Assembly (NCBI GenBank): GCA_965218875.1
Contig: CBDCMJ010000001.1
Location: 2,840-66,839, forward strand
Direction of reading: 5' to 3'
Length of the DNA: 64,000 nt
Source: Dehalococcoidia bacterium
GTDB taxonomy: Bacteria; Chloroflexota; Dehalococcoidia; Lucifugimonadales; UBA3495
Shown: positions 19,274 through 64,000 of the stretch, one piece after another
How the letters are laid out: each line of letters opens with the position of its first letter
How positions within the stretch are numbered: the stretch's first letter is position 1
Program-made: the position numbers and the translations under genes
The notes under the pieces: generated by a model
Seen by the model: the letters and a program-made list of their open reading frames with translations, nothing else
What the model was told of the DNA's origin: nothing
The model's database searches: none

Positions 19274-21526
19274 CTAATGACGCGGCCCCGGCCGCCACTC
19301 GATTACCTCGGTCTCTTCGGGGGTGGCCTCGATGCGGATGGGGAAGCGGTTGCCCCTTGCCAGCAGCAGCCCGTCTCCCCGAGGACAGGACAGGAGCCAG
19401 CGTTGCAGCTCCACCGGCAGGTCGAAGGCTTCGCCCACGGTGCTGATGGCGGCGGCGTCCTGCTGCAACAGCAGCTTGAAGGCGGCGTTCTGGAGCAGCG
19501 CCCTGCCGGAGTGGCCGGTGATGGCGCGCGACGAGTCCTCGGAGAGCAGGTCCTGCACGTCCTGGGTGATGAACTGCAACCCCAGCCGGTGCTTGCGGGC
19601 GCGCTTGGCCATGCTGACCATGAATGCCGCCCCTTCGGGGTGCTGCATGATGCTCCACACCTCGTCCACCACCAGCAGGCGGGGCCGGGGGTCTTGGGCG
19701 GCGGCGGCCCATACCGTCTCGGTGCAGACCATCGCGGCGGCGGGACGCAGTTCCGGTTCCAGCAGGTGCAGGTCGAAGACGGTGACCAGGGCCTCGTGGG
19801 TCAGCAGGTCGTCGCCCTCGTCGGAGAGCAGGTGGCGCAGGCTACCGGTGGCGAAGGGCCGCAGCAGGTGGGCGATGTCGCCGCCCTCGGCTTCCAGGTA
19901 GGCGTAGAAGTCGCGGAATCCGGTGCGCTCCCTATGCTCGGCGTAGTAGCCCGCCAGGGCGTGATCCAAAGACGAGCGCCGCTCGGCGCTGAGCCGCTCC
20001 CCCACCATCACCTCGATGAGACGCCGCAGGCTGCCGATGCGCTGGAGCAGTTCCTCGCTGTCGCCCCGATCGATGACGAAGGGGTTCATGCCCTGCCCCG
20101 CGATTCCAGGGGACAGCACCCTCCCGCCGGCGGCGCGGGCCATGTCGGCGTACTCGCCCTCCGGGTCGATCACGTAGGCGCGCACGCCACGGCAGACGCC
20201 GCGCAGCACCCCCAGCTTGGTGGCGAAACTCTTGCCGCTGCCGGAACGGGCTAGGACGGCGGTGTTGGCATTCAGGTGGGTGCCGTCGAAGGGGTCGTAG
20301 ACGATGGGGGCGCAGGCCCGCAGGTCGATGCCGTAGAGAGTGCCGCTCCTGGTGTCCAGGTCCGGCGGCGAGAAGGGGAAGAGCCGCGCCAGCGACGACG
20401 TGTCCAGGGTCCGCCACACCGCCACGGCGTTGAGGCCCAGGGGCAGGGTGGACAGCAGGCCCTCGCGCTGCCGGAAGGCCAGGTTGTCCAGCTTGCCCAG
20501 GGTGGCGGCGAAGTGGGCGCGGGCCTTCTGGGTCAACTCCTTCAGCCCGTCGGCGTTGTCGGCGTGCAACGTCACCGACAGGGAGGCATGGAACAGCCGC
20601 TCCCGTCCCCGCTGTACTTCATCGCGCAAACGGCTCACGTCCTCCAGGGCGATCTCCGCCTCCGGCGACAGGCTGCGGCCCCGGTTCAGAGACAGGGATT
20701 GCGCCGACTCGAAGCGGACCTTCTGCCACTCCAGGGTGCGGGCGGCCTGCTCCGACGGAATGGCGCCCAGGTGGACCGACAGATCCATGGGCGCTCCGGC
20801 GGCCATCAGCCCCTGTAGGAAGCCCGGGGCCAGCAAGCGGGGCCACTTGCCCAGGTGCAGGGAGCGGGTCAGGTGGGCTCCGACGCGGATGTCGCGGCGG
20901 TTGATCTCCACCGCCAACTCTGTGTCTTCATCACGGTCAATGGGTGAACCCCCAAGGGCCGAGGCCAGCAGCAGGAGGCGCAGCGGTTCTCCTTTCAGGG
21001 GGAACACTCCCAGCCCGGCCCGGGCCAGCAGCCCACGCATCTCGTCGGCGCGGTTGTGTTCGCAGATGGCGTAGAAGCGCCGGTCCAGGATTCCCTCCCG
21101 GGATTCCAAGCCGGTCAGGAGCCGTCCCAGGGAGTCGGCGGCATCTCGGGTCTGCTGGGGCAGGTCCTCGGGCTGGGCTTGTTCAAGATTGGCCCGCAGG
21201 CTTTGAAACACCGGCGGGTGCTGGCGGACCAGCAGTTGCACCGGGAAGTCCAGGGCGTTCAACGAACCGGCGAAGGCCCCCAGCTTGGGCTCGTCCAGCT
21301 CCAACCCCATCACCTCCAGCACCCCCAGCTTCACCCCGTCCAGCCGCACCGGCCCGTCCTCTTCCAGGTGGGACAGCATGAAGAACAGGGACAGCGGGGG
21401 TGGCGGCTTGGGTTCCGCCGTCTCGGTGAGCTCGATGTCATTGGGTTGAATTTCCTCGGACGCTGCGGGATTTTCCTTCCTGCCGCGTCCGGCCAGCTTC
21501 TTCAGGTTGGGTAGTGTCGCTTTCAT
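19274..21526 (-). CDS. VirB4/TrbE-like conjugative ATPase (ICE copy A)
   Basis: Walker A ARSGSGKSF, Walker B RLLVVDEVWSIM, about 750 aa. It is the homolog of the partial ORF at 61942 onward. Confidence 0.85.
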   Translation of the reverse strand: MKATLPNLKKLAGRGRKENPAASEEIQPNDIELTETAEPKPPPPLSLFFMLSHLEEDGPVRLDGVKLGVLEVMGLELDEPKLGAFAGSLNALDFPVQLLVRQHPPVFQSLRANLEQAQPEDLPQQTRDAADSLGRLLTGLESREGILDRRFYAICEHNRADEMRGLLARAGLGVFPLKGEPLRLLLLASALGGSPIDRDEDTELAVEINRRDIRVGAHLTRSLHLGKWPRLLAPGFLQGLMAAGAPMDLSVHLGAIPSEQAARTLEWQKVRFESAQSLSLNRGRSLSPEAEIALEDVSRLRDEVQRGRERLFHASLSVTLHADNADGLKELTQKARAHFAATLGKLDNLAFRQREGLLSTLPLGLNAVAVWRTLDTSSLARLFPFSPPDLDTRSGTLYGIDLRACAPIVYDPFDGTHLNANTAVLARSGSGKSFATKLGVLRGVCRGVRAYVIDPEGEYADMARAAGGRVLSPGIAGQGMNPFVIDRGDSEELLQRIGSLRRLIEVMVGERLSAERRSSLDHALAGYYAEHRERTGFRDFYAYLEAEGGDIAHLLRPFATGSLRHLLSDEGDDLLTHEALVTVFDLHLLEPELRPAAAMVCTETVWAAAAQDPRPRLLVVDEVWSIMQHPEGAAFMVSMAKRARKHRLGLQFITQDVQDLLSEDSSRAITGHSGRALLQNAAFKLLLQQDAAAISTVGEAFDLPVELQRWLLSCPRGDGLLLARGNRFPIRIEATPEETEVIEWRPGPRH

Positions 21527-21547
21527 CGGTGAATCTCCTTTTTTCTT

Positions 21548-21895
21548 CTATGGGCCGGGCAGGACTTCGATGATCCGGCTGTTGAGCGCGGCGGCGATGC
21601 CCTTGGCCAGCAGCACCACCACCAGCCCGACCACGGCCATGATTACGGCGTTCCTGGCTTTTCCCCGCCCAGAACCTTCTCCCTCGGCGCCCTCGGCCAT
21701 CAGGACGAACCCCGCCCAGACGATGGCGAAGAAGCACAGGCCCACCCCGGCGTAGGCCATGCCGGTCAGCACCACGTCGAAGGCGGCCAGCATCCTTGCC
21801 TTCTCGTCCGGCGCGGCGGCGGCCACGGAGGCCAGCGCCGCACCGGAGGCGAGCAGGGTCTTTGCCACGCGCCCTACCACGGCCACCAGTCCCAC
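21548..21895 (-). CDS. Small integral membrane protein, T4SS-associated (GTG start)
   Basis: It aligns with 61576-61920 (..MLAAFD.VLTGMA.AGVGLC.FAIVWAGFVLMAEGAEGEG.GRGKARNAVIMAVVGLVVVLLAK). It overlaps the stop of the upstream ORF, as in copy B. Confidence 0.6.
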   Translation of the reverse strand: MGLVAVVGRVAKTLLASGAALASVAAAAPDEKARMLAAFDVVLTGMAYAGVGLCFFAIVWAGFVLMAEGAEGEGSGRGKARNAVIMAVVGLVVVLLAKGIAAALNSRIIEVLPGP

Positions 21896-23493
21896 CAGTT
21901 GGAATCGCCCACCGGCGTCTGCTCCGCCCTGGGCGGCGGGGGTGTGGGCGGTGGAACGTGCAGGGCCTCGTATGGGTCGTCGGCCCCCACGCCCAGAGCC
22001 TGCCCCGCACTTGATGCGGGGGCCGGGGCCAGGGGCGCCGTCTCCGGCCTGGTCCGGGTGACCGGAGCGCGCTGGGTCTCGACGGCCCGCACGTGCTCCG
22101 GGTGGTGGACGTAGATACGGACGGTCCTGGTCACCGAGGAACCCTCGCCGCAGGACAGGCTCACCCGCCGGGTATACACGTCGGTTCGGGCCGGGTGGTG
22201 GGTGGTCTGCAACATCGGAGGCAGCGGCACGTTCAGCGTCGCCGTAAGGTCCGCCGTGATTTCCAGGTTGTGGACCGCCTTCCTGTTGGCGACGGGCAGC
22301 CGGAACCGGGTCTCGCCGCCCGCGACGAAGGACACGCTGGCCCGGTGGCTTCCGGCGGCGACGTCGACCCTGCCAGCGATTCGGGTGACGCTGGCGTCCA
22401 GCAGGGCGGGGACGTTCTGGCTGAAGTGGCCGCCGTACACCGGCAGGTCCACCTCCTGGCGGGTCTCGGCGATACACTCCGAGGCGATGACGCCGGAGAT
22501 GCTGCCCGGCGTCCACTCCAGGGAGGTCAGCTCCAGGTCGCACAGCCCGCCGTCGGCCTGGGGCAGGGGGTAGGGTATCTGGCCGCTCTTCAGGGTCACC
22601 GCTCCGGACCGGCCCAGGGCGTCCAACCAGGAGAAGGTGAAGGACGGCGACGGGCCGTTCAGGGTCAGGTTGTAGCTCTTGCTCTGGCCCGCCGTCAGGC
22701 TGGTGTTGGCCCCCATCTTCAGGGTCCGGCCCGACCTGCCGCCGAAGACCCGCACCTTCAGGTCCAGGTCGTGGGCCGCCCGCAGGGTGACGGCGGCGGT
22801 GTCGCCGGAGACGGCGAGACGTTCGATGAAGATGCGCCGTCCCGGCACCGGCTCCGGCGGGACGAAGTAGATCTCGTCCAGCCGCCAGCCCGGGTCCTCG
22901 TCGGGGTCGTCGGCCAGGACGGCGCTGGGCAGCAGGACCACCGCCAGCAGGCCCAGCGCCGCCACCGCCAGGAAGCGGTTCCAGGGTTTCTTGCCCTTGG
23001 ATTCATGCTGGCTGGGGTTGGGGCCGTTGCCGCCGTCCCGGTTGCGGCGTTTGCCGAACCAGCTGTGGGGACGGAACGGTGCTCTCCCCTTCTTGCGGGC
23101 AGCCCTGACCCCCCGGCTCAAGCCGGAGGCGGCTTTCTTGGCCAGCAGCCGCAGCGGGTCGGGCCTGGCCTCCGGCGGGGCGGGCGGCTCGCTCTTGGTC
23201 ATTTCCAGCGGGGACCCGGCGTAGCGCCTGGCCCCCAGGTTGAACTTCAGCAGGTCGGCGGCCACCAGGGGCAGCCCCCGGCCTCCCACCTTGCCCACGG
23301 TCAGGGCAATTCCCACGACGCCGATCAGCACGCCAACCGCCAGGCGCACCGCCATCGGGCCGAAGGGCAGGTAGTGGAAGGCTCCGTAGGACACGGCGCA
23401 CACCGCCACCACCGCCACTATCTGGGGAAAGGTGAACCACAGCAGCACTTTATCCTCGGCCTGCACGTGGGTTGGGACTTCATGCTCTCTCAT
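21874..23493 (-). CDS. PrgI/VirB3-like N-terminal membrane domain protein with a large extracellular region
   Basis: MREHEVPTHVQAEDKVLLWFTFPQIVAVV is the PrgI-family start pattern. It has two to three TM segments followed by about 350 aa of beta-rich region. It is paired with 59975-61594. Confidence 0.65.
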   Translation of the reverse strand: MREHEVPTHVQAEDKVLLWFTFPQIVAVVAVCAVSYGAFHYLPFGPMAVRLAVGVLIGVVGIALTVGKVGGRGLPLVAADLLKFNLGARRYAGSPLEMTKSEPPAPPEARPDPLRLLAKKAASGLSRGVRAARKKGRAPFRPHSWFGKRRNRDGGNGPNPSQHESKGKKPWNRFLAVAALGLLAVVLLPSAVLADDPDEDPGWRLDEIYFVPPEPVPGRRIFIERLAVSGDTAAVTLRAAHDLDLKVRVFGGRSGRTLKMGANTSLTAGQSKSYNLTLNGPSPSFTFSWLDALGRSGAVTLKSGQIPYPLPQADGGLCDLELTSLEWTPGSISGVIASECIAETRQEVDLPVYGGHFSQNVPALLDASVTRIAGRVDVAAGSHRASVSFVAGGETRFRLPVANRKAVHNLEITADLTATLNVPLPPMLQTTHHPARTDVYTRRVSLSCGEGSSVTRTVRIYVHHPEHVRAVETQRAPVTRTRPETAPLAPAPASSAGQALGVGADDPYEALHVPPPTPPPPRAEQTPVGDSNWWDWWPW

Positions 23494-23506
23494 TCCATCC
23501 CTCCTT

Positions 23507-23779
23507 CTAGCTGTCGGTCGGGTCGGGCACGGTGGGGTCCACCGGGTTGCCCACCACGGCGTTCATCACCAGCTCAACGACGCCATAAGCGACGAGGGCC
23601 AGCACGATGCCGGCCAGGGCGGTCATCATGGCCGCCTTGCCCCGCTCCATCTGGTTGGGCGCTCCGGAGGCGGTGAGGTACATGTAGGCGCCGTAGATGA
23701 AATAGCCCACGCCGACGACGCCCACCAAACCCAGCAGGATGCCCACCAGGTTCGATATGGTCTGTGTCAGGTCGTCCAT
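23507..23779 (-). CDS. TrbC/VirB2-like pilin-type small membrane protein
   Basis: 90 aa with two hydrophobic helices flanking YMYLTASGAPNQMERGKAAM. It is nearly identical to 59668-59964. Confidence 0.6.
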   Translation of the reverse strand: MDDLTQTISNLVGILLGLVGVVGVGYFIYGAYMYLTASGAPNQMERGKAAMMTALAGIVLALVAYGVVELVMNAVVGNPVDPTVPDPTDS

Positions 23780-23931
23780 ACGGTTTTTCTCCTTTCAAAT
23801 TGGATTGCCCGATATGTGAATTGCGTTGCTGTGGTCGGCCCCAATCTGCTACTGGCACATGTCTCCACCTCCCGGGCGGTTCCGGCGCGAAACCTGTCCG
23901 CGCCGGTGGTTGTCGTCGTTCCGGTTGCTGG

Positions 23932-24912
23932 CTACGGCCCCTGGCTGCGGGGCGTCGGGCCGCTTTGGGCCGGGGAAGTGGAGTTCTGGGCCGCCGAGTT
24001 CACCGCTCCGGCGGCCGTGGTGGCGGCGGCGCTGGCTGCGCCGGTCGCCGCTGACGCGGCGGCAACTCCCGCCGGTCCTCCGGCAGCTCCACCGGCCAAC
24101 ATCCCCAGGGCGCGGCCAGAACGCACCACCGAGCCGGGCAGGGACATCCCGAAGTAGAGGGTGTGCAGCCAGGCGTCGAAGGTCCCGTGATGCCCCAGCA
24201 TCGAGGGCACCCGGCCCGCCAGGTACATGAAGGCGATGGCCATCAGCAGCTTCCACACCAGGTCCTCCGACGGCTCGAAAGCGGCGATGGCGGCGAAGTC
24301 CTCCAGAAAGGCGAAGGCCAGGGCCACGGCGATGAGCTGGATTGCCTGCTGGAACACCGTGGTCATGAACAGCCGGAGCCAGTGCTTTCCCCAACCGGCG
24401 GTGTGGGGCAGAATCCACAGCCCCAGGGCGATGGGCGCCAGGCAGAGCAGGATGTCAATCAGGGCCAGGCGCAGGATCATCTGCACCAGCAGGTAGAGGA
24501 CGAAGAAGCCGAAGACCAGGTAGAGCAGGGCGATGAACACCGCCAGGCCGGTGTTGGCGGTCTCGACGGCGGTCAGCAGCGGCTCCAGGGGAGCCCGCAG
24601 CAGGGCGCCGGGGGTCACGTCCAGGGAGACGGCGATGAACTGGGAGACGGCGTGGGCCACGTCGATGACCAGGGCGCACCACCAGAGGGACGACGCGGCG
24701 GCGGTGAGTCCCAGGACCAGCCGGGGCACCATCTCCCGCCAGCCCGACTGGTGGTGGCCCAGGTGCTCCTGGACGATGAAGCTCAGCCCCATCCAGCCCA
24801 GGATCACCGCCAAAGCGCCGGAGGTGATGGCCCAGACCACCATCCACGCCTGCTGGATGAAGGGATGCAGGTAGGTGAGTTCAGGAGGAGTTCCGGTGAG
24901 GATGTCCGTCAT
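23932..24912 (-). CDS. VirB6/TrbL-like polytopic membrane protein
   Basis: It has six or more hydrophobic segments and an Ala/Gly-rich tail. By eye it is about 97 percent identical to 58542-59522. Confidence 0.65.
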   Translation of the reverse strand: MTDILTGTPPELTYLHPFIQQAWMVVWAITSGALAVILGWMGLSFIVQEHLGHHQSGWREMVPRLVLGLTAAASSLWWCALVIDVAHAVSQFIAVSLDVTPGALLRAPLEPLLTAVETANTGLAVFIALLYLVFGFFVLYLLVQMILRLALIDILLCLAPIALGLWILPHTAGWGKHWLRLFMTTVFQQAIQLIAVALAFAFLEDFAAIAAFEPSEDLVWKLLMAIAFMYLAGRVPSMLGHHGTFDAWLHTLYFGMSLPGSVVRSGRALGMLAGGAAGGPAGVAAASAATGAASAAATTAAGAVNSAAQNSTSPAQSGPTPRSQGP

Positions 24913-24918
24913 ACGTCC

Positions 24919-25542
24919 CTACCCTCCCCGGCACTCGTCGAGGTCGCTGGCCGACACCTTCTGCACCACGCCGCACAGGGTCCCGTGGACTCCCTGGATG
25001 ACCCACTTGGCGGCGGCCCGGGCCCAGCGGTCGGGGTCGAGAGCGCCCAGCACCCGGTCCCACAACCCGTTGGGCTGGTGGACGGGAATCAGGGCGTGGA
25101 AGACGTGGTGGTCGCCGCCCCCGGTGCGCGGAACGGCCAGCACCAGGAGATATGCCTGCTCGGGGTGAAGCTCGGGCTGCTCGTCCAGGGCCGGGTACTC
25201 GAAGGTGTACTCCCAGCCTTCGGAGAGGTGCTTTTCGCCGCCCTGGACCCGGTAGGTATTGGTGAGCCAGTCGCCGGTGTCGGGGTGGCGGATGGAGTAG
25301 AACAGGACATCGGTCTTCCGGCTGAGGATGGGGCGGGCCACGAAGTCGCCCTCCTTCTTCCGCTCCACCATCTGCCGGTCCCGGTTGACCAGGGTGACGG
25401 AGTCGGTGTCGGGGGGCGGCGGGGACTGGGCCAGTGCCAGCCCAGAAGCAGGGATGGCAACGAGGGCCGTAAAGAGCAAAGCCCCTGCCAGGAGAATCAG
25501 GCGGCGGGCTTTGCCGGACCTGGGGATGAATCGGCGGAACAT
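24919..25542 (-). CDS. Secreted protein of the T4SS operon (signal peptide)
   Basis: MFRRFIPRSGKARRLILLAGALLFTALVAIPASGLALA is a signal peptide. It is the homolog of 57915-58535. Confidence 0.6.
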   Translation of the reverse strand: MFRRFIPRSGKARRLILLAGALLFTALVAIPASGLALAQSPPPPDTDSVTLVNRDRQMVERKKEGDFVARPILSRKTDVLFYSIRHPDTGDWLTNTYRVQGGEKHLSEGWEYTFEYPALDEQPELHPEQAYLLVLAVPRTGGGDHHVFHALIPVHQPNGLWDRVLGALDPDRWARAAAKWVIQGVHGTLCGVVQKVSASDLDECRGG

Positions 25543-25948
25543 GGTGGCCTCCTCGTCGGTGATGGGGACGTTTTGTCCCGCCGTCGAGTCTGACCACGCG
25601 GGGTGGGCTTACCAATGGCTTGTGAGGGGGGACTGTACGGAGGCCCCCCTCACGGGGCATCAACTTTCCGGGGCGCGGTGTGATGTTATGGGGGTGTACA
25701 GGGATTGGCAGGCAGCGACGCGAGTCCACGGTGGCCGGTTCATTCGGGAAACCGGCGGATTAGCTGCATTTCCGTTGCATTACAGCAAGCACTTGGGTAT
25801 TAGGGCTGGTTGCCAGGTTTCCGGCATCGCCCCCCTACAGGAATTGCAACCCTGTGGCCTGCTGGAGCGTTGTTGTCGTGCAAGCGCCCTGTGTCGAAAC
25901 CGCAACTTTGCGCCGGTGGTCATACCGCTGGCGCCGGGAGGTACGGAC

Positions 25949-26803
25949 ATGGAACGGAGCCGGAACGTGGAGGACCTGCACCACCTGCGTCTGATGGCGT
26001 TGCTGCACGAGCTGGTGCGGGAGCGGGACTTGAAGGGCGCGGCGGAGGCCCTGGGCCTGGACCCCAGGACGCTCAGCGCCAGCATGGACCGGGGGGCGTT
26101 GTCGGGGCTGGCCCAGGTGGCCCTGGAGCGGTGGCTGTTGGCCGAGGGGGACCGGGAGGCTGCCCAGGCCCGCGACGAGGTGCGGGAGCTGGCGGGGCGC
26201 GTGGACGGCGTTGAGCAGCGGGTTGACGGGCTGGCGGACGAGGTGGGCAAGGCAGTGGGGGAAGTCCAGCGGGTTGCCGAGGAAGCTGGCGGGAATGGCG
26301 CCGGGGATCGGGCGAGAGAATTGCAGCGGTTGGAGCGGCGGATGGACCGGCTGGAGTCAGCAGGCGGGGTTGGCGCCGGACGGGCCGGTGGGCCGCAGGC
26401 GACCGGAGCGGGGCGACGCCCGGCTCTGACAGGGATTGCGGCGTCCGCGCGGCGTTACCCCGACCTGGTTACCCGCGATGCCGACGCTGACGACGAGGAG
26501 GTCTTCGGCGACGCCTGGCCCTTGGTTGACGAATGGCGCGGCTTGTGGAAAGGCCACCCCGACCGGGTCAGGGGCCTGCGCTGGCTTGACACCGAGGCGC
26601 GCATCTTGGAGCTGGAGTTGGCGATGCTGGAGGAGCACGGCCTGACCCTGCCGCCGGAGACGGAGCCGCTGCGGGGGCTGGAGCGGAACGCCCAGCTGGG
26701 CTGGCGGCAGAAAGCACTGGCCGACACTCGCCGGAAGTTAGCCCGGCGGAGGGCGCTGCGCCGGCTTAGGCGGTTGCTCACCCTTGGGCTGTGGCGGCGG
26801 TAG
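25949..26803 (+). CDS. ICE-conserved regulator-like protein (N-terminal HTH-like segment, coiled-coil, conserved C-terminal domain)
   Basis: ..LKGAAEALGLDPRTLSASM.. and the C-terminal RRYPDLV..WPLVDEWRGLW..ILELELAMLEEHGLTLPPETEPLRGLERN are shared with 56667-57518. Confidence 0.55.
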   Translation: MERSRNVEDLHHLRLMALLHELVRERDLKGAAEALGLDPRTLSASMDRGALSGLAQVALERWLLAEGDREAAQARDEVRELAGRVDGVEQRVDGLADEVGKAVGEVQRVAEEAGGNGAGDRARELQRLERRMDRLESAGGVGAGRAGGPQATGAGRRPALTGIAASARRYPDLVTRDADADDEEVFGDAWPLVDEWRGLWKGHPDRVRGLRWLDTEARILELELAMLEEHGLTLPPETEPLRGLERNAQLGWRQKALADTRRKLARRRALRRLRRLLTLGLWRR

Positions 26804-27871: not shown

Positions 27872-28177
27872 ATGCGCATCAGGGACAGACTCGTTCAAAT
27901 CAAAGCCGTCGCGGTGGCGGTTGGCAGCTTCATCAGCCGGCACAAGCGGGCGTCGATTGCGGTTGGCGTAGCGTTGCTCATCGCCGGGCCGCTGCTCACG
28001 GGGACCGGCGGCGAGACCTTTTTCCTCAACCTGGTGGGCCTCGGCATCGTCGCCCTCGTCGTCCGGCGGATTGTGCGGGCCAACGAGAGGCGGCAGGCGG
28101 CGCAGGCCCGGCAGGCCAATTGCCGGTGCCGGTGTCATAGGCAGCAGCAAACTCAGCAACAAGGAGGCACTCCATGA
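27872..28177 (+). CDS. Small membrane protein (ICE-conserved)
   Basis: An AAGGAGGTG ribosome-binding site is present. MRIRDRLVQIKAVAVAVGSFISRHKRASIAVGVALLIAGPLL parallels MRITERLNQLKTTAVAVGGFIGGHRRLFIAVAAVLLIGGPL at 54044-54223. Confidence 0.6.
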   Translation: MRIRDRLVQIKAVAVAVGSFISRHKRASIAVGVALLIAGPLLTGTGGETFFLNLVGLGIVALVVRRIVRANERRQAAQARQANCRCRCHRQQQTQQQGGTP

Positions 28178-29688: not shown

Positions 29689-29895
29689 TCCACTCCCTCT
29701 CCCCCAACCCTCTCCTCTACCGGCCCGCCTTCCCCGGCGGGCCTTCGCGTTTTCAACCACTCTCCTACTGATCCCCTTGGGCTACACCTGCCCATCTCCC
29801 GACGGGGCCTCCCGCCCCGCCGACGGCTTCCAGTGCCGGAAGCCGCACGAACGCCCATCACCCACGGAATTACAACTTCTGCAAGGAGATACGTC

Positions 29896-30777: not shown

Positions 30778-30883
30778 ACCTTCCGGCTAACTGGCAACCA
30801 ACCAGGCAATGGGGCCGTTCCCTGACAACAGGGGCGGCCCCGCTTCTCATCTACCGGACCAAACAACACAAGGAGGAAACGAC

Positions 30884-35183: not shown

Positions 35184-35187
35184 CATC

Positions 35188-54043: not shown

Positions 54044-54223
54044 TTACCTCCTTTCGGTTATGGATTGGCTGCTGGTTCGTGCCTTTCCCGTTGCTGGTGG
54101 CAGCGGCCCACCGATGAGCAGTACCGCCGCCACGGCGATAAACAGGCGCCTGTGCCCGCCGATGAAACCGCCGACAGCGACCGCTGTAGTCTTGAGTTGG
54201 TTGAGCCGTTCCGTGATGCGCAT
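54044..54223 (-). CDS. Small membrane protein (short homolog of 27872-28177)
   Basis: MRITERLNQLKTTAVAVGGFIGGHRRLFIAVAAVLLIGGPL. Confidence 0.5.
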   Translation of the reverse strand: MRITERLNQLKTTAVAVGGFIGGHRRLFIAVAAVLLIGGPLPPATGKARTSSQSITERR

Positions 54224-56626: not shown

Positions 56627-56666
56627 GCCAAGCCAGCGCCGCCCTCCACGCCGGCACCGCCGCCGC

Positions 56667-57518
56667 CTAATTCCGCCACAGCCCCAGGGTCAGCACCCGC
56701 CGCGCCCAGCGCACCCGCACCAGCCCGGCCCGCTGGCACCTGACCTTCGCCAGCTCCCGCACCCGCCAGTTCAGTTGCTCGTTGCGGTCCAGGCCCCGCA
56801 GCGGCGCCGTCTCCGGCGGCAGCGTCAGCCCGTGCTCCTCCAGCATCGCCACCTCCAGCTCCAGAATCCGCGCCCGCCGCGACGCCCACGCCAACCCCCT
56901 GCCCCGGGGCGAGTGTCCCACCCACAGCTTGCGCCACTCGTCGATCAACTCCCAGGCCTCGCCGTAGACATCCTCGTCGTCGTCGGCAGGCTCCCTCATA
57001 ACCAGGTCGGGGTAACGCCTGGCAGCCCCGGCCCGCACCGTCCCGGCGCCGCCTGACCCCGCCTCCGGCGCCGCGCCGCGCCGTCCTCCCAGCCGCCGCT
57101 CCAACCGCTGCATCTCCTGGGCGAACTCCCGCCGCAGCGAATCCGCCACTGGACCGGCAAAATCCCCGCCGTTGCCGTTGTTGCTGCCCGCCGCCGACAC
57201 CAGCGCCCACTCTCCCGCCAGCTCGGCCACCCGTTCCTCCAACGCCCTGACCGTCTCCCGGTCCTCCTCCATCGCGGCGACGGCCCGCTGCAACAGCATC
57301 CGCTCCAACGCCTCCGCCAGGCGCTCCGACATCCGACCGGCCCCCTCGCTGCGCCACATGGTCTTGCGGTCTATGCCCAGCTCCTCCGCCGCCTTCGCCT
57401 GCCCCAGGTCTTTCACCAGGTCGTTCAACAACGCCCGCAGCCGCAGCTCCCGCAGGCTCTCGATGCTGGGGGTGCCATCCCCCGGCCATCCCGGTCGCAT
57501 CATCCTTGCCACCTCCAT
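56667..57518 (-). CDS. ICE-conserved regulator-like protein (copy B)
   Basis: It is the homolog of 25949-26803, and the start was chosen by alignment (MEVARMM..). It shares the C-terminal RRYPDLV..ILELEVAMLEEHGLTLPPETAPLRGLDRN. Confidence 0.55.
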   Translation of the reverse strand: MEVARMMRPGWPGDGTPSIESLRELRLRALLNDLVKDLGQAKAAEELGIDRKTMWRSEGAGRMSERLAEALERMLLQRAVAAMEEDRETVRALEERVAELAGEWALVSAAGSNNGNGGDFAGPVADSLRREFAQEMQRLERRLGGRRGAAPEAGSGGAGTVRAGAARRYPDLVMREPADDDEDVYGEAWELIDEWRKLWVGHSPRGRGLAWASRRARILELEVAMLEEHGLTLPPETAPLRGLDRNEQLNWRVRELAKVRCQRAGLVRVRWARRVLTLGLWRN

Positions 57519-57784
57519 GCTCGTGTTCCACAAGGAACATTTCCTGTAGGGGCGTGGAACATCGCCGCCGCCAGCGCCATGTTCCACCTGGAACAATCCG
57601 TAGCTGGCCCTGCCCCATGGCCCTGGAACCGGCCCTTCCCGCCAAGTGTTCACAACTTCCGCCCCGAACCCCCCGAAATACCCCCATTTCAGCTACGAAA
57701 CCGCCTTCATGCCCCATCCTGCCCAAAGTCCAAATCCCTGTACACGTCTATAACACCACGGTTGGGGCGTCGGGCGTCAGGTCT

Positions 57785-57835
57785 TATAGGGTGGTTCACG
57801 CGTGAACCAGGGGTTCATGGATGAACCACCCTATA
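57785..57835. promoter_or_regulatory. 51-nt nested palindrome upstream of the copy-B T4SS operon
   Basis: TATAGGGTGGTTCA-CGCG-TGAACC-AGG-GGTTCA-TGGA-TGAACCACCCTATA. It lies about 80 nt upstream of the ATG at 57915. Confidence 0.6.
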
Positions 57836-57914
57836 GGGGGTTGGAGTCGGGGCGGGCGGTCTCCACACTGGCTTGGCGAACATCGGTTCGCAATCCAAAC
57901 CGGAGGAGGCCGCC

Positions 57915-58535
57915 ATGTTCCGCAGATTCATCCCCAGGTCCGGCAAGGCCCGCCGCCTGATTCTCCTGGCGGGGGCCTTGCTGCTCACGGGCCTTTGCGC
58001 CGTCCCCATGAGCGGCGTCGCCCTGGCCCAGTCCCCGCCCCCCGACAGCGACACCGTCACCCTGGTCAACCGCGACCGGCAGATGGTGGAGCGGAAGAAG
58101 GAGGGCGATTTCGTGGCCCGCCCCGTCTTCAGCCGCCAGACCGATGTCCTCTTCTACGCCGTCCGCCATCCCGACACCGGCGACTGGCTCACCAGCACCT
58201 ACCGGGTCAGGGGCGGCGAGAAACACCTCTCCGAGGGCTGGGAGTACACCTTCGAGTACCCCGCCCTGGACGAGCAGCCCGAGCTCCACCCGGAACAGGC
58301 ATATCTCCTGGTGCTGGCCGTGCCCCGCACCGGCGGCGGCGACCACCACGTCTTCCACGCCCTGATTCCCGTCCACCAGCCCAACGGGTTGTGGGACAAG
58401 GTGCTGGGGGCCCTCGACCCCGACCGCTGGGCCCGGGCCGCCGCCAAGTGGGTCATCCAGGGTGTACACGGAACCCTGTGCGGCGTGGTGCAGAAGATTT
58501 CGGCCAGCGACCTCGACGAGTGCCGGGGAGGGTAG
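57915..58535 (+). CDS. Secreted T4SS-operon protein (copy B)
   Basis: It starts MFRRFIPRSGKARRLILLAGALLL.. and is the homolog of 24919-25542. Confidence 0.6.
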   Translation: MFRRFIPRSGKARRLILLAGALLLTGLCAVPMSGVALAQSPPPDSDTVTLVNRDRQMVERKKEGDFVARPVFSRQTDVLFYAVRHPDTGDWLTSTYRVRGGEKHLSEGWEYTFEYPALDEQPELHPEQAYLLVLAVPRTGGGDHHVFHALIPVHQPNGLWDKVLGALDPDRWARAAAKWVIQGVHGTLCGVVQKISASDLDECRGG

Positions 58536-58541
58536 GGATTT

Positions 58542-59522
58542 ATGAGCGACATCCTCACCGGAACTCCCCCGGACCTGACCTACCTGCATCCCTTCATCCA
58601 GCAGGCCTGGATGGTGGTGTGGGCCGTCACCTCCGGCGCCCTGGCGGTGATCCTGGGCTGGATGGGGCTGAGCTTCATCGTCCAGGAGCACCTGGGCCAT
58701 CACCAGTCGGGCTGGCGGGAGATGGTGCCCCGGCTCGTCCTGGGCCTCACCGCCGCCGCCTCGTCCCTCTGGTGGTGCGCCCTGGTCATCGACGTGGCCC
58801 ACGCCGTCTCCCAGTTCATCGCCGTCTCCCTGGACGTAACCCCCGGCGCCCTGCTGCGCGCTCCCCTGGAGCCGCTGCTGACCGCCGTCGAGACCGCCAA
58901 CACCGGGCTGGCGGTGTTCATCGCCCTGCTCTACCTGGTCTTCGGCTTCTTCGTCCTCTACCTGCTGGTGCAGATGATCCTACGCCTGGCCCTCATCGAC
59001 ATCCTGCTCTGCCTGGCCCCCATCGCCCTGGGGCTGTGGATTCTGCCCCACACCGCCGGTTGGGGAAAGCACTGGCTGCGGCTGTTCATGACCACGGTGT
59101 TCCAGCAGGCGGTGCAGCTCATCGCCGTGGCCCTGGCCTTCGCCTTTCTCGAAGACTTCGCCGCCATCGCCGCCTTTGAGCCCTCGGAGGACCTGGTGTG
59201 GAAGCTGCTGATGGCCATCGCCTTCATGTACCTGGCGGGGCGTGTCCCCTCGATGCTGGGGCACCACGGGACCTTCGACGCCTGGCTGCACACCCTCTAC
59301 TTCGGGATGTCCCTGCCCGGTTCGATGGTGCGCTCCGGCCGCGCCCTGGGGATGTTGGCCGGTGGGGCCGCCGGAGGACCGGCAGGCGCGGCAGCCGCGT
59401 CAGCGGCGACCGGCGCGGCCAGCGCCGCGGCCACCACGGCCGCCGGAGCGGTGAACTCGGCGGCCCAGGGCTCCACCGCTCCCGCCCAGAGCGGCCCGAC
59501 GCCAAGGAGCCAGGGGCCGTAG
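58542..59522 (+). CDS. VirB6/TrbL-like polytopic membrane protein (copy B)
   Basis: It is near-identical to 23932-24912. Confidence 0.65.
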   Translation: MSDILTGTPPDLTYLHPFIQQAWMVVWAVTSGALAVILGWMGLSFIVQEHLGHHQSGWREMVPRLVLGLTAAASSLWWCALVIDVAHAVSQFIAVSLDVTPGALLRAPLEPLLTAVETANTGLAVFIALLYLVFGFFVLYLLVQMILRLALIDILLCLAPIALGLWILPHTAGWGKHWLRLFMTTVFQQAVQLIAVALAFAFLEDFAAIAAFEPSEDLVWKLLMAIAFMYLAGRVPSMLGHHGTFDAWLHTLYFGMSLPGSMVRSGRALGMLAGGAAGGPAGAAAASAATGAASAAATTAAGAVNSAAQGSTAPAQSGPTPRSQGP

Positions 59523-59667
59523 CCAACAACCAGACCGACGACAGCCACCGGCGCGGACAGGTTTCGCGCCGGAACCGCCCAGGAGGTGGAGCCATGTGCC
59601 AGTAGATGTAGACACGGACCGGGCAAAGAAATACAGCCAACCAACCCGATCTCAAGGAGATAGAGAA

Positions 59668-59964
59668 ATGTCAGACCTGACACAGACCATATCGAACCTG
59701 GTGGGCATCCTGCTGGGCTTGGTGGGCGTCGTAGGCGTGGGTTACTTCATATACGGCGCCTACATGTACCTGACCGCCAGCGGCGCGCCCAACCAGATGG
59801 AGCGCGGCAAGGCCGCCATGATGACCGCCCTGGCCGGCATCGTGCTGGCCCTCGTCGCTTATGGCGTCGTTGAGCTGGTGATGAACGCCGTCGTCGGCAA
59901 CCCGGTGGACCCCACCGTGCCCGACCCCACGACCCGCATCGACCCCGGTACCGGCCACGTTTAG
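59668..59964 (+). CDS. TrbC/VirB2-like pilin-type protein (copy B)
   Basis: An AAGGAG ribosome-binding site is present. MSDLTQTISNLVGILLGLVGVVGVGYFIYGAYMYLTASGAPNQMERGKAAM. Confidence 0.6.
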   Translation: MSDLTQTISNLVGILLGLVGVVGVGYFIYGAYMYLTASGAPNQMERGKAAMMTALAGIVLALVAYGVVELVMNAVVGNPVDPTVPDPTTRIDPGTGHV

Positions 59965-59974
59965 GAGGGATGGA

Positions 59975-61594
59975 ATGAGAGAGCATGAAGTCCCCACCCA
60001 CGTGCAGGCCGAGGACAAGGTGCTGCTGTGGTTCACCTTTCCCCAGATCGTGGCGGTGGTGGCGGTGTGCGCCGTGGCCTACGGCGCTTACCACTACCTC
60101 CCCTTCGGCCCTATGGCGGTCCGCCTCGCCGTTGGCGTGCTGATCGGCGTGGTGGGCATCGCCCTGACCGTGGGCAAGGTGGGAGGCCGGGGGCTGCCCC
60201 TGGTGGCCGCCGACCTCCTCAAGTTCAACCTGGGGGCCAGGCGCTACGCCGGGTCCCCGCTGGAAATGACCAGGAGCGAGCCCCCCGTCCCGGTGGAGGC
60301 CAAGCCCGACCCCCTGCGGCTGCTGGCCAAGAAAGCGGCGAGCGGTGTAGGACGGGCGGTGAACGCTGCCCGCAAGATGGGGCGTGCCCCCTTCCGTCCC
60401 CACAGCTGGTTCGGCAAACGCCGCCGTCCGAAGGATGGAAATAACCAGCAGTTCAAGCCGGAGGAGACCAAACACAAGAAGCCCTGGAACCGCTTCCTGG
60501 CGGTGGCGGCCCTGGGACTGCTGGCCGTTGTCCTGCTGCCATCAACAGCCCTGGCCGACGACCCCGACGACGAGGACCCGGGCTGGCGGCTGGAGGAAAT
60601 CTACTTCGTGCCGCCCGACCCGGTGCCGGGACGCCGCATTTTCATCGAGCGGCTGGCCGTCTCCGGCGACACCGCCGCCGTCACACTGCGGGCGGCCCAC
60701 GACCTGGACCTGAAGGTCAGGGTCTTCGGCGGCAGGCAGGGCCGGACCCTGAAGATGGGGGCCAACACCAGCCTGACGGCGGGCCAGGCCAAAAGCTACA
60801 ACCTGACCCTGAACGGCCCGTCGCCGTCCTTCACCTTCTCCTGGGTGGACACCCTGGGGAGGTCCGGGGCGGTGACCCTGAAGAGCGACCAGATTCCCTA
60901 CCCCCTGCCGTCAGCGGACGGCGGGCTGTGCGACCTGAAGCTGACCTCCCTGGAATGGACGCCGGGCAGCATCTCCGGCGTCATCGCCTCGGAGTGCATC
61001 AGTGAGACCCGGTACGAGGAACCCCTGCCGGTGTACGGCGGCCACTTCAGCCAGACGGTCCCCTCCCTGCTGGACGCCTCGGTCACCCGCATCGTGGGGA
61101 CGGTCAACATAGCTGCCGGAAGCCACCGGGCCAGCACGCCCTTCGTCGCCGGCGGCCAGACCCGTTTCACCCTTCCGGTCGCCAACCGCAAGGCCACCCA
61201 CGGGGTGGAAATCACGGCGGAGTTGACGGCGACGCTGAACCTGCCGCTGCCGCCCATGTTGCAGACCACACATCACCCGGCCCGGACCGACGTGTATACC
61301 CGGCGGGTGAGCCTGTCCTGCGGCGAGGGTTCCTCGGTGACCAGGACCGTCCGTATCTACGTCTACCACCCGGAGCACGTGCGGGCCGTGGAGGTCCAGC
61401 GCGCTCCGGTCAGCCGAACCCGCCCGGAGACGGTTCCCCTGGCCCCGGCCACCGTATCGAGTACGGGGCAGGCTCTGGGCATGGGGGCCGACGATCCCTA
61501 CCAGGCACTGCACGTTCCCCCGCCCACACCCCCGCCGCCGAAGGCGGAGCAGGCTCCCGTTGGCGATTCCAGCTGGTGGAGTTGGCCGTGGTAG
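59975..61594 (+). CDS. PrgI/VirB3-like membrane protein with a large extracellular region (copy B)
   Basis: It has the same 539-aa length and the same N-terminus as 21874-23493. Confidence 0.65.
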   Translation: MREHEVPTHVQAEDKVLLWFTFPQIVAVVAVCAVAYGAYHYLPFGPMAVRLAVGVLIGVVGIALTVGKVGGRGLPLVAADLLKFNLGARRYAGSPLEMTRSEPPVPVEAKPDPLRLLAKKAASGVGRAVNAARKMGRAPFRPHSWFGKRRRPKDGNNQQFKPEETKHKKPWNRFLAVAALGLLAVVLLPSTALADDPDDEDPGWRLEEIYFVPPDPVPGRRIFIERLAVSGDTAAVTLRAAHDLDLKVRVFGGRQGRTLKMGANTSLTAGQAKSYNLTLNGPSPSFTFSWVDTLGRSGAVTLKSDQIPYPLPSADGGLCDLKLTSLEWTPGSISGVIASECISETRYEEPLPVYGGHFSQTVPSLLDASVTRIVGTVNIAAGSHRASTPFVAGGQTRFTLPVANRKATHGVEITAELTATLNLPLPPMLQTTHHPARTDVYTRRVSLSCGEGSSVTRTVRIYVYHPEHVRAVEVQRAPVSRTRPETVPLAPATVSSTGQALGMGADDPYQALHVPPPTPPPPKAEQAPVGDSSWWSWPW

Positions 61595-61920
61595 GGCGCA
61601 TCGCAACCATCCTCCTCGCCTCCGGCGCGGCGCTGGCCTCCGTGGCCGCCGCCGCGCCGGACGAGAGGGACAAAATGCTGGCGGCCTTCGACGCGGTGCT
61701 GACGGGCATGGCCTTCGCCGGGGTGGGCCTCTGCCTCTTCGCCATCGTCTGGGCCGGGTTCGTGCTGATGGCCGAGGGCGCCGAAGGCGAAGGGCCTGGG
61801 CGGGGAAAAGCCAGGAACGCCGTGATCATGGCCGTCGTCGGCCTGGTGGTGGTACTCCTGGCCAAGGCCATCGCCCTCGCATTGAACAGCAGGCTCGGCC
61901 CGATCCTGCCCATCCCATAG
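61576..61920 (+). CDS. Small integral membrane protein (copy B, GTG start)
   Basis: It is the homolog of 21548-21895. Confidence 0.6.
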   Translation: MELAVVGRIATILLASGAALASVAAAAPDERDKMLAAFDAVLTGMAFAGVGLCLFAIVWAGFVLMAEGAEGEGPGRGKARNAVIMAVVGLVVVLLAKAIALALNSRLGPILPIP

Positions 61921-61941
61921 AACCGGAAAGGAGATTCAACG

Positions 61942-64000
61942 ATGAAAGCGACGCTACCCAACATCAGGAAACTCGCCGGGCGCGGCAGGACCGAAACGAT
62001 TGCCGACTCGGAAGCCACCAAACACACCCAAGAACCTGCGGAACCCAAGCCGCCGCCGCCCCTGTCCCTGTTCTTCATGCTGTCCCACCTGGAAGACGAC
62101 GGGCCGGTGCGGCTGGACGGGGTGAAGCTGGCGGTGTGCGAGGTGATGGGGCTGGAGCTGGACGAACCCAAGCTGGGAGCCTTCGCCGGTTCCCTCAACG
62201 CCCTGGACTTCCCGGTGCAACTGCTGGTGCGCCAGCACCCGCCGGTCCTGGCAACCCTGAGGAGCACCCTGGCCGACGCCCAGCCCGACGATTTGCCCCG
62301 GCAGACCCGCGACGCCGCCGACTCCCTGGGCAGGTTGCTGAGCGGCCTGGAGACCCGCGAGGGCATCCTGGACCGGCGCTTCTATGCCGTCTGCGAGCAC
62401 AACCGAATGGACGAGTTGCGCGGCCTGCTGGCCAGGGCCGGCCTGGGCGTGTTCCCCCTGAACGGCCAAGCCCTGCGGCTGTTGCTGCTGGCCTCGGCCC
62501 TGGGCGGCTCCCCCAACGACCGTGACGAGGAGGAAGAGCTTTCCGTCGAGGTCAACCGGCGGGACATCCGAATCGGAAACCACCTGACCCGCTCCCTGCA
62601 CCTGGGCAAGTGGCCCCGCAGCCTGGCCCCCGGATTCCTCCAGGGCCTGATGGCCGCCGGAGCGCCAATGGACTTGGCCGTCCACCTGGACGCCATCCCC
62701 TCGGACCAGGCGGCCCGCACCCTGGAGTGGCAGAAGGTCAGGTTCGAGTCGGCGCAGAGCTTGTCCCTGAACCGGGGCCGCAGCCTGTCACCCGAGGCGG
62801 AGATCGCCCTGGAGGACGTGAGCCGCCTCCGGGACGAGGTGCAAAGGGGCCGGGAGCGGCTGTTCCACGCCTCCCTGTCGGTGACGCTGCACGCCAGTGA
62901 CACCGACACCCTCAAGGACCTGACCCAGAAGGCCCGGGCCCACTTCGCCGCCACCCTGGGCAAGCTGGACAACCTGGCCTTCCGCCAGCGCGAGGGACTG
63001 CTGTCCACCCTGCCCCTGGCCCTGAACGCCGTGGCGGTCTGGCGGACGCTGGACACCTCCAGCCTGGCAAGGCTGTTTCCCTTCTCCCCGCCGGACCTGG
63101 ACACCAGGAGCGGCACCCTCTACGGCATCGACCTGCGGGCCTGCGCCCCCATAGTCTACGACCCCTTCGACGGGACCCACCTGAACGCCAACACCGCCGT
63201 CCTGGCCCGTTCCGGCAGCGGCAAGTCCTTCGCCACCAAGCTGGGATTGCTGCGCGGGGTGTGTAGGGGCGTGCGGGCCTACGTCATCGACCCCGAGGGC
63301 GAGTACGCAGACATGGCCCGCGCCGCCGGTGGCAGGGTCTTGTCGCCTGGAATCGCGGGCCAGGGCATGAACCCCTTCGTCATCGACCGGGGCGACAGCG
63401 AGGAACTGCTCCAGCGCATTGGCAGCCTGCGCCGGCTCATCGAGGTGATGGTGGGGGAGCGGCTCAGCGCCGAGCGACGGTCGTCTTTGGACCACGCCCT
63501 GGCGGGCTACTACGCCGAGCGCCGGGAGCGCACCGGATTCCGCGATTTCTACGCCTACCTGGAGGCCGAAGGCGGCGGCGATATCGCCCACCTGCTGCGG
63601 CCCTTCGCCACCGGCAGCCTGCGCCATCTCCTCTCCGACGAGGGCGACGACCTGCTGACCCACGAGGCCCTGGTCACCGTCTTTGACCTGCACCTGCTGG
63701 AGCCGGAGCTCAGACCGGCGGCGGCGATGGTCTGCACCGAGACGGTATGGGCGGCGGCAGCCCAGGACCCCCGCCCAAGGCTGCTGGTGGTGGACGAGGT
63801 GTGGAGCATCATGCAGCACCCGGAGGGCGCGGCCTTCATGGTCTCGATGGCGAAACGCGCCCGCAAGCACCGGCTGGGGTTGCAGTTCATCACCCAGGAC
63901 GTGCAGGACCTGCTCAGCGAGGACTCCTCCCGCACCATCACCGGACACTCGGGGAGGGCGCTATTGCAGAACGCCGCCTTCAAGTTGCTGCTCCAGCAGG
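61942..64000 (+). CDS. VirB4/TrbE-like ATPase (copy B), 3' end outside window
   Basis: A GGAAAGGAG ribosome-binding site is present. MKATLPNIRKLAGRGR.. is colinear with 19274-21526. Walker A ARSGSGKSF lies near 63200 and Walker B RLLVVDEVWSIM near 63790. The ORF is open to the window edge. Confidence 0.85.
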   Translation, partial: MKATLPNIRKLAGRGRTETIADSEATKHTQEPAEPKPPPPLSLFFMLSHLEDDGPVRLDGVKLAVCEVMGLELDEPKLGAFAGSLNALDFPVQLLVRQHPPVLATLRSTLADAQPDDLPRQTRDAADSLGRLLSGLETREGILDRRFYAVCEHNRMDELRGLLARAGLGVFPLNGQALRLLLLASALGGSPNDRDEEEELSVEVNRRDIRIGNHLTRSLHLGKWPRSLAPGFLQGLMAAGAPMDLAVHLDAIPSDQAARTLEWQKVRFESAQSLSLNRGRSLSPEAEIALEDVSRLRDEVQRGRERLFHASLSVTLHASDTDTLKDLTQKARAHFAATLGKLDNLAFRQREGLLSTLPLALNAVAVWRTLDTSSLARLFPFSPPDLDTRSGTLYGIDLRACAPIVYDPFDGTHLNANTAVLARSGSGKSFATKLGLLRGVCRGVRAYVIDPEGEYADMARAAGGRVLSPGIAGQGMNPFVIDRGDSEELLQRIGSLRRLIEVMVGERLSAERRSSLDHALAGYYAERRERTGFRDFYAYLEAEGGGDIAHLLRPFATGSLRHLLSDEGDDLLTHEALVTVFDLHLLEPELRPAAAMVCTETVWAAAAQDPRPRLLVVDEVWSIMQHPEGAAFMVSMAKRARKHRLGLQFITQDVQDLLSEDSSRTITGHSGRALLQNAAFKLLLQQ

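Follow-up and report, generated by a model that had tools for sequence, protein, structure and literature searches.

A conjugative element probably nested in the helicase gene of its own relative in a Dehalococcoidia bacterium

Integrative and conjugative elements (ICEs) that carry other ICEs are represented by the streptococcal composites Tn5253 (Tn5251 inside Tn5252) and ICESp2905 (ICESp2907 inside ICESp2906), in which both partners are conjugative independently. Host and guest come from unrelated ICE families in these cases, so that the composites lack long inverted repeats of a conjugation module. Large serine integrases, such as those of phiC31, Bxb1, A118, TnpX, and the Ccr type of SCCmec, combine Resolvase, Recombinase, and Zn-ribbon domains, are encoded at one end of their element, and act directionally at a central dinucleotide; they leave a shared junction dinucleotide and conserved element arms. 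Here we analyze a 64,000-nucleotide stretch of DNA (the window, C2:2840-66839) from a metagenome-assembled genome (MAG) of a Dehalococcoidia bacterium (Chloroflexota), in which an earlier note had recognized two diverged copies of a conjugative module in inverted orientation. With a probability of about 0.87, the window holds two related ICEs, one of which (ICE B, the guest) appears to be inserted in the superfamily 2 (SF2) helicase gene of the other (ICE A, the host) at a GA dinucleotide at positions 38333-38334.

In Streptococcus suis, conserved genes of Tn5252-family ICEs, among them an SNF2 helicase/methylase gene (61 cases), are insertion targets for integrative mobilizable elements (IMEs) with serine recombinases (PMC7168690). 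Truncated target genes persist there as scars, and the host ICE lies in rplL (Libante et al. 2019, PMC7168690), while an ICE carrying such an IME still transferred at ~2 x 10^-3 per donor (PMC7168690). "Matryoshka" composites of ICEs and IMEs have been documented in Firmicutes, and tools that merge neighboring conjugation genes misread them as one element (PMC9585547). Our locus is like the S. suis IME_SNF2 insertions in that a guest with a serine recombinase occupies a helicase-type gene of a host ICE, truncated targets recur, and the host ICE lies at a conserved chromosomal site (rplL there, a tRNA gene here). It is unlike them in that the guest is a full ICE of the host's own family, with relaxase, coupling protein (T4CP), and a VirB4-containing type IV secretion system (T4SS), rather than a small mobilizable element. 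Furthermore, the organism belongs to Chloroflexota rather than Bacillota, and the present case is known from sequence alone; the target is a separate SF2 helicase gene beside a methyltransferase gene, and the two systems are likened by mechanism, not by family membership.

Unlike the partners of Tn5253 and ICESp2905, host and guest share a 10.6-kb homologous module here, and the long inverted repeats of the conjugation module arise because the guest comes from the same family as the host. Compared with the Firmicutes Matryoshkas (Lao et al. 2022, PMC9585547), insertion takes place at one fixed dinucleotide and in several families of a Dehalococcoidia order. In comparison with known large serine integrases, the attB site lies inside a gene of another mobile element, and the last integrase codons cross the attachment (att) junction. 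While nesting of elements in ICEs is already known from Firmicutes, the present case is family-internal ICE-in-ICE nesting at a fixed integrase site. A search for ICEs of Chloroflexota from sponges turned up no account of this ICE family within the literature searched.

The interrupted helicase gene and its recurrence in relatives

The target gene encodes a protein with ResIII and Helicase_C domains and follows a methyltransferase gene of the DUF6094/N6_Mtase type. In ICE A the reading frame runs to ...LCWFET at 38334 and then into 66 unrelated codons and a stop. The intact helicase genes on two further contigs of the same genome, C3 and C5, continue at this point with DYSVYTMRQASRRSWRIGQ (SF2 motif VI) and ~240 further codons; they are uninterrupted and represent the empty site. 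Pfam finds Helicase_C in the intact protein and not in the truncated one. The features at the junction are as follows.

36641-38334, plus strand: SF2 helicase gene of ICE A, 5' part (~565 codons), cut before motif VI
38333-38334, no strand: GA crossover dinucleotide at the attL junction between the ICE A helicase gene and ICE B, from an alignment of six elements and two empty sites
38335-38559, no strand: conserved ICE B end (P' arm), common to the guests of C7, C4, G009, G018, and G026

With a caret marking the junction, attB (C3, C5) reads ..GAGAC(G/C)GA^TTACAGCG, attL (C2, C7, C4, G009, G018, G026) reads ..GAGACCGA^GTTCTYYGTCTTCCAATCAACA....AGTACGGTTCTCATGGG, and attR (four elements) reads ..TCGATTGCAGGACCGGAGCCGA^TTACAGCG. 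The GA is common to the two attB, six attL, and four attR sequences at the junction, as seen by alignment and not by biochemistry.

The complete form of this arrangement is present on C7, another contig of the same genome. Its helicase halves lie on the same strand 39.2 kb apart, the 5' part ending at C7 57027 and the 3' part starting at C7 17822, and they overlap by two bases in the C3 reference. Between them lie, in order, a kinase/regulator, a large surface protein, a 430-amino-acid (aa) regulator with three helix-turn-helix (HTH) domains, the T4SS, T4CP, relaxase, and a 607-aa integrase, which has Resolvase, Recombinase, and Zn-ribbon domains above the Pfam cut-offs and abuts the helicase 3' half. 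Beyond the guest, C7 keeps the remainder of the helicase gene and the A-type element. Over 28 kb, C2 and C7 share 96.5% identity in their A-type parts, while the guests are just 68 to 86% identical; such similar hosts with dissimilar guests therefore speak for independent insertions at one site, not for one duplicated composite.

Among 31 genomes searched with the intact helicase for split copies, three (G009, G018, and G026) have copies split at residues 556-575. Each contains VirB4 inside the split and, abutting the helicase 3' part, a serine integrase 77 to 90% identical to that of the C7 guest. The shared order is helicase 5' part, histidine kinase/response regulator, the 430-aa HTH protein, regulator, VirB6, VirB4, T4CP, relaxase, integrase, and helicase 3' part, with further sequence after the kinase and after the relaxase. 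The split copies of G009 and G018 lie in chromosomes that are assembled as single contigs and belong to other species. G026 is a mirror image, in which the primase, Rad52, SSB, and RadC genes of the host are visible together with its own T4SS, inverted relative to that of the guest. A serine integrase at the far end of the guest, and helicase halves on one strand, were found in 4/4 cases (C7, G009, G018, G026). Guest VirB4 is co-directional with the host helicase in 5/5 cases, and host and guest T4SSs are inverted in all three cases with a visible host T4SS. Genes for primase, Rad52, SSB, RadC, and helicase were not recognizable in any of the five guests examined. The closest relative of ICE B is the guest of G009, which holds locus L004 (T4CP, 94% nucleotide identity; relaxase, 82.5% aa identity; a 376-aa gene, 85% aa identity). 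In a wider census of 201 genomes of the order, the helicase was present in 81, mostly intact, with truncations at residues 573-582 in at least eight further genomes.

The following two observations concern the same genes. The host ICE of G026 carries a guest-type serine integrase (L087, G026:C1:677881-679608), 60% identical to that of the C7 guest; therefore, integrase type and host or guest architecture are not strictly linked. On the main chromosome of the present genome, a diverged 3' fragment of the helicase gene (54% aa identity) stands isolated at G000 C1:2920465-2920963, starting at residue 560, and the junction before it is attR-like but has a different element arm; the fragment is probably the scar of another nesting event.

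The mechanism that we propose would begin with ICE A adjoining tRNA-Ile, its T4SS operon on the minus strand and its leading region and helicase gene on the plus strand. The guest's own large serine recombinase would integrate ICE B at the GA in the helicase gene and so remove motif VI from the 5' part. From there, ICE B would extend rightwards through kinase/regulator, giant surface protein, HTH regulators, T4SS, T4CP, and relaxase past the contig end. Serine-integrase directionality would always place the guest T4SS co-directionally with the host helicase, which opposes the host T4SS, and the inverted layout of A and B is attributed to this directional site-specific integration. The mosaic described below would stem from modules being swapped among the many members of the ICE family, both within one genome and between genomes. 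The integrase of ICE B, presumably encoded off the contig, is likely to have made this insertion. Excision of the guest would be expected to restore the helicase gene; the attP junction of the excised guest would then read ...GGACCGGAGCCGA^GTTCTTCGTCTTCC..., and the repaired attB on an A-type background would read ...TTCGAGACCGA^TTACAGCG....

Composition of the two elements

Two related ICEs had been one of the possibilities raised by the earlier note, and this proposal, rather than a single duplicated module, is borne out. The note had also treated leading-region genes, kinase/regulator, and giant surface-protein gene as one block bracketed by the two modules. This block falls apart at the junction: the part from 28 to 38.3 kb is the leading region of ICE A, and the part from 38.3 to 54 kb is the cargo end of ICE B. 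With B inserted at 38334, the kinase/regulator and the giant surface-protein gene are therefore cargo of B. Upstream of its interrupted helicase gene, ICE A consists of the following features.

10039-10115, plus strand: tRNA-Ile(GAT), found by ARAGORN; left flank and attachment region of ICE A
10058-11692, minus strand: large serine recombinase, 544 aa; Pfam Resolvase, Recombinase, and Zn_ribbon_recom, all above cut-offs
11983-12921, minus strand: ImmA-like metalloprotease (Pfam Peptidase_M78)
12918-13325, minus strand: HTH repressor-like gene (HTH_3/HTH_31)
15019-16659, minus strand: relaxase A (Replic_Relax family)
16659-19238, minus strand: T4CP A (Pfam TrwB_AAD_bind/TraG-D_C)
19274-21526, minus strand: VirB4 ATPase A (Pfam)
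21548-21892, minus strand: small TrbC/pilin-like 114-aa gene A
21874-23493, minus strand: PrgI-like 539-aa gene A
23507-23779, minus strand: T4SS pilin A
23932-24912, minus strand: VirB6/TrbL-like gene A, in the best-conserved stretch of the repeat (94% nucleotide identity)
24919-25542, minus strand: secreted 207-aa gene A, in the same best-conserved stretch (94%)
26006-26803, plus strand: divergently transcribed regulator A, conserved part; 47% identical to the 328-aa protein of B
26972-27036, no strand: 65-nucleotide block A, candidate cis site
27827-28177, plus strand: small membrane protein A
28714-36506, plus strand: leading-region-type genes, in ICE A only (Pfam: primase, Rad52-type annealase, TSCPD protein, SSB, RadC; also small open reading frames)
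35472-36506, plus strand: methyltransferase, in the leading region of ICE A

Homology with the window among A-type elements spans from 10039-10251 up to 38334-38559, with ~92% identity for the copies on C3 and C4. When the left ends of C2, C3, and C4 are aligned, homology starts within or at the tRNA 3' end. The right end of ICE A is off the contig, on the far side of the guest. The recombinase reading frame runs on the strand opposite to tRNA-Ile and finishes inside it. On C4, the near-identical element adjoins tRNA-Lys (C4:4139-4215) instead of tRNA-Ile, and the C3 copy is preceded by just the 3' 46 nucleotides of tRNA-Ile (C3:3358-3404); given these differing flanks, the target of the A-type integrase is not a single tRNA.

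To the left of tRNA-Ile, C2 carries housekeeping-type genes (FAD-linked oxidase, Fe-S CCG protein, CYTH) and insertion sequence (IS) copies, and it is therefore regarded as chromosomal DNA. A plasmid origin was considered and rejected: the 11-kb module had no match in PLSDB by megablast, the left flank holds the housekeeping-type genes and the tRNA gene, and relatives hold these elements in multi-megabase chromosomes.

ICE B follows the P' arm with the features below.

39385-41823, minus strand: hybrid histidine kinase/response regulator (Pfam), ICE B cargo; the position is likewise filled in the C7 and G009 guests
42007-50640, plus strand: giant cadherin-like/Fn3 surface protein, ICE B cargo
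50763-51560, plus strand: 265-aa Fn3 protein, ICE B cargo
51840-52160, plus strand: HTH gene
52567-53859, minus strand: triple-HTH 430-aa regulator, kept in all guest-type elements
54044-54346, minus strand: small membrane protein B
55246-55310, no strand: 65-nucleotide block B, in a non-coding stretch
55496-56626, plus strand: B-specific 376-aa gene without a Pfam match or a paralogue elsewhere in the genome; 85% aa identity in the G009 guest
56667-57653, minus strand: regulator B (328 aa)
from 57873, plus strand: secreted protein B, in the T4SS block
58542-59522, plus strand: VirB6 B
59596-59964, plus strand: pilin B
59975-61594, plus strand: PrgI-like gene B
61576-61920, plus strand: small 114-aa gene B
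61942-64185, plus strand: VirB4 B, running past the window end

Beyond the window, the T4CP and relaxase genes of ICE B come next, followed by an IS21-like transposase, an Eco57I-like methylase, a UvrD-like helicase and its DUF2290 partner, and an ImmA/HTH pair similar to that of A. The relaxase of B scores 24.2 bits against a Pfam cut-off of 25.3 bits and aligns end to end with that of A at 58% identity. Within ICE B, C2:72842-80435 is a block of lower G+C content at third codon positions (GC3), which contains the IS21-like transposase, the Eco57I-like N6 methylase (850 aa), and the UvrD-like helicase with its partner; the block is probably defence cargo. No overlaps at high identity were found among the contig ends of the assembly, and C2 is thus not extendable from it. 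By comparison with C7 and G009, the integrase and attR of B are predicted to lie 1-2 kb beyond the C2 end.

The earlier note had raised a second integrase and att site beyond 64 kb, and the possibility that copy B is a fragment. The attL is in place, inside the window at 38333-38334, while the integrase is seen via relatives and not on C2. Copy B is a fragment insofar as C2 ends before its integrase and attR. All eight shared conjugation genes are intact reading frames in both A and B, and both ICEs may still be proficient for transfer.

Divergence of the conjugation modules

The inverted repeat is far beyond chance. Fourteen inverted repeat pairs link 19459-27833 to 54261-64000, the best of them joining 23849-25419 to 58035-59605 (1571 nucleotides, 94%). 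Whole-contig blastn gives a single inverted alignment of 10,659 nucleotides at 82.7% (window 15065-25554 versus 68462-57903). Two inverted copies, as described in the earlier note, are thus real, and they are larger than noted: at 10.6 kb they include relaxase and coupling protein, the left edge lying 4.2 kb left of 19274 and the right edge 4.5 kb past the window end. The colinear gene string holds through the secreted 207-aa protein, regulator, non-coding stretch, and small membrane protein. Pfam likewise backs the gene names, with matches to P-loop_TraG, AAA_10, and TraC_F_IV for VirB4, T4SS_pilin for the pilin, and TrbL for VirB6, the 539-aa protein being weakly PrgI-like. As the note had said, the regulators match over about half their residues (47% across 264 aa); between the small membrane proteins, identity is 53% across 58 aa.

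In the non-coding stretch, the 65-nucleotide block of A (26972-27036) is 100% identical to the reverse complement of that of B (55246-55310), and its flanks are diverged. In ~66 related loci the block is kept at 78 to 91%, always the same distance upstream of VirB4. We regard it as a candidate cis site, possibly an origin of transfer (oriT) or an operator.

A per-gene comparison of A and B, given as aa identity and synonymous divergence (dS), shows how uneven the modules are.

Relaxase: 58% aa, dS 0.83, the most diverged gene of the repeat
T4CP: 77% aa, dS 0.35
VirB4: 93% aa, dS 0.44
Small 114-aa gene: 82.5% aa, dS 0.28
PrgI-like 539-aa gene: 87.5% aa, dS 0.27
Pilin: 97.6% aa, dS 0.23
VirB6: 97.5% aa, 94% DNA, dS 0.20, dN/dS 0.08
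Secreted 207-aa gene: 92% aa, dS 0.28

The mosaic divergence seen earlier is therefore confirmed, with dS ranging from 0.20 to 0.83. The description of VirB6 and pilin as nearly identical is right for the proteins and not for the DNA (VirB6, 94% nucleotide identity, dS 0.20). Sliding identity between A and B steps from ~65% to 92% at ~16924, where the 3' end of the T4CP gene lies; hence, relaxase and T4CP tail behave as one exchanged module.

Gene trees place this mosaic in a wider frame. A forms a clade with the copies of C7, C3, C4, and L001 (a locus of another genome), with 99 to 100% support in the T4CP and VirB4 trees, and the same clade is rejected by the VirB6 data (approximately unbiased [AU] test, p = 0.0017). 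B switches partners from gene to gene, its T4CP being 94.2% identical to L004 of another genome and at most 83.6% identical to copies in its own genome, and A and B are sisters in no tree. Recombination behind the mosaic, as the earlier note had suspected, is supported by these incongruent trees. Exchange between A and B specifically is not: the two are never sisters, and each VirB6 is as close to copies of other genomes (95 to 96%) as it is to its counterpart (94%). To judge from the sequences compared, the mosaic is recombinational and a property of the whole ICE family, not A-B gene conversion.

Two simpler accounts were considered and set aside. Stronger constraint on VirB6 as the sole cause explains part of the pattern (dN/dS 0.08), but the gene trees are incongruent and mean nucleotide identity between genomes is 84.2% for VirB6 and 84.0% for VirB4, so that constraint alone is insufficient. 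Concerted evolution within the genome does not fit, as its own copies resemble one another no more than they resemble those of two related genomes.

At one intergenic point between pilin and VirB6 (window 23694 / 59750), many family members have a 2.4-kb insert that A and B are without; it is present at C9:11858-13843 and in L004, L006, L045, L015, and L054. The 661-aa product of the insert has a YADD motif as well as an HNH-like C-terminal end and looks like a group II intron reverse transcriptase. An 86% identical copy of the insert is found elsewhere on C4 (33244-35531).

Alternative explanations and implications

Several points weigh against the nesting of B in A. The evidence for this layout in the MAG is the assembly together with its recurrence elsewhere, and with an estimated contamination of 5.2%, C2 could derive from a co-binned close relative. 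C2 ends ~11.4 kb after the relaxase of B, past the ImmA/HTH pair, which leaves integrase and attR off the contig; a single junction (attL) is visible for B on C2, and the helicase 5' half alone is present in the window. The attB of C3 and C5 has GG-A where attL and attR have CG-A, and the core is deduced from diverged copies instead of the actual site as it was before insertion. Finally, excision of the guest and transfer of the ICEs are predictions from the nucleotide sequence.

If the assembly or the binning had joined two ICE variants that adjoin in no real genome, the layout would be an artefact, and the genome offers some grounds for such a concern beyond its contamination estimate. It consists of nine contigs (one of 3.10 Mb and eight of 19-85 kb; 64% G+C), and all eight of its T4SS modules are on small contigs (two each on C2 and C7, one each on C3, C4, C8, and C9); C6 holds a fragment of a module, the 3.1-Mb contig holds none, and several contigs end inside ICE sequence. 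However, a chimera would be expected to break inside a repeat, not at a conserved integrase site, and the junction lies at least 13 kb away from any A-B repeat, where the sequence is unique. The attL structure is the same in five other elements, two of them in single-contig chromosomes and one on the diverged C7. Assembly chimerism, which the earlier note had held open, is therefore excluded indirectly by the recurrence of the layout on C7 and in other genomes, and we consider it very unlikely. About as improbable is the reading of the earlier note by which A-B gene conversion in VirB6 and pilin, followed by homologous recombination, inverts the ~32 kb between the copies. The 10.6-kb inverted repeat with its 1571-nucleotide stretch at 94%, the 15 perfect runs of at least 50 nucleotides, the lowest dS in VirB6 (0.20), and the Rad52-type annealase and SSB encoded by ICE A would all suit it. 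Nevertheless, a dS of 0.20 is much too high for a recent conversion tract, and both VirB6 genes are nearer to L001 (A, 96.1%; B, 95.3%) than to each other (94.0%). Inversion would misorient attL relative to attR of B, upset the att arrangement of both elements, and create chimeric T4SS operons, and inverted isomers were found in 0/4 cases (C7, G009, G018, G026). Inversion by homologous recombination is possible in principle, but nothing supports it, with a best stretch that is 6% diverged, a longest perfect match of 78 nucleotides, and the helicase halves on the same strand in 4/4 cases.

Even less credence is given to position 38334 as the distal end of ICE A (an attR or pseudo-att site) or a deletion scar, with an unrelated or chromosomal neighbor. 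A 14-mer resembling a tRNA T arm, GTTGGTTCGAGACC at 38319-38332, is visible in the att alignment and could mark such an end, and the main contig C1 contains a paralogue of 38594-41292 at 76% identity. Yet in the intact C3 and C5 helicases, which read on, the 14-mer is ordinary coding sequence (L-C-W-F-E-T); it is not kept in the host genes of G009, G018, and G026, which are cut at the same GA nonetheless, and C7 retains the rest of the helicase gene and the A-type element past the guest. Because these host genes, although cut at the same GA, do not keep the motif, tRNA T-arm mimicry as the target of the guest was likewise rejected. The least probable reading is a single large element with a duplicated T4SS serving two functions, e.g., DNA transfer and adhesion or protein secretion. 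It would account for the recurrence of the pair as a unit on C2, C7, and G026 and for a guest that has adhesin-like cargo and lacks leading-region genes. It is opposed by a relaxase, T4CP, and ImmA/HTH pair for each copy, with an integrase and att sites of their own in complete examples, by the existence of empty sites (C3, C5, and many intact genes), and by the guests of C2 and C7, which are much less alike than their hosts.

The nesting of ICE B in ICE A most likely resolves an odd inverted duplication of ~45 kb into one ICE inside its relative, with the kinase/regulator and the adhesin-like gene as guest cargo. It would mean that a large and very common ICE family of this order uses its own helicase gene as a landing site, a nesting habit previously documented mainly for small mobilizable elements in streptococci. 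The conserved attB sites, attP arms, and integrases amount to a naturally occurring collection of orthogonal pairs of large serine integrase and site.

The closest relatives of this genome include many long-read assemblies with multi-megabase contigs and some bins from sponge metagenomes, all Dehalococcoidia (Chloroflexota). A contig scan for the conjugation module gave at least 573 related stretches. VirB4 was found in 14 of the 31 relatives, mostly single-contig chromosomes, with one to nine copies each. Relatives in 100-290 contigs (short-read MAGs) had no VirB4, and single-contig relatives had up to nine copies; ICE content has probably been lost from short-read MAGs. Nested inverted modules break assemblies, and mobile DNA in these symbiont-type genomes is probably undercounted systematically.

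It is tempting, although on present evidence rather unlikely, to assume that an ICE lineage in sponge-type Dehalococcoidia may specialize in living inside ICEs of its own family. If so, the guests would represent a hyperparasitic or hitchhiking "ICE of ICEs," with an integrase aimed at a conserved helicase codon of the host ICE. They would ride along with the host, rely on its establishment genes, and disable one function of its leading region, and the 10-kb inverted modules, together with the Rad52 system of the host, would fuel module shuffling throughout the family.

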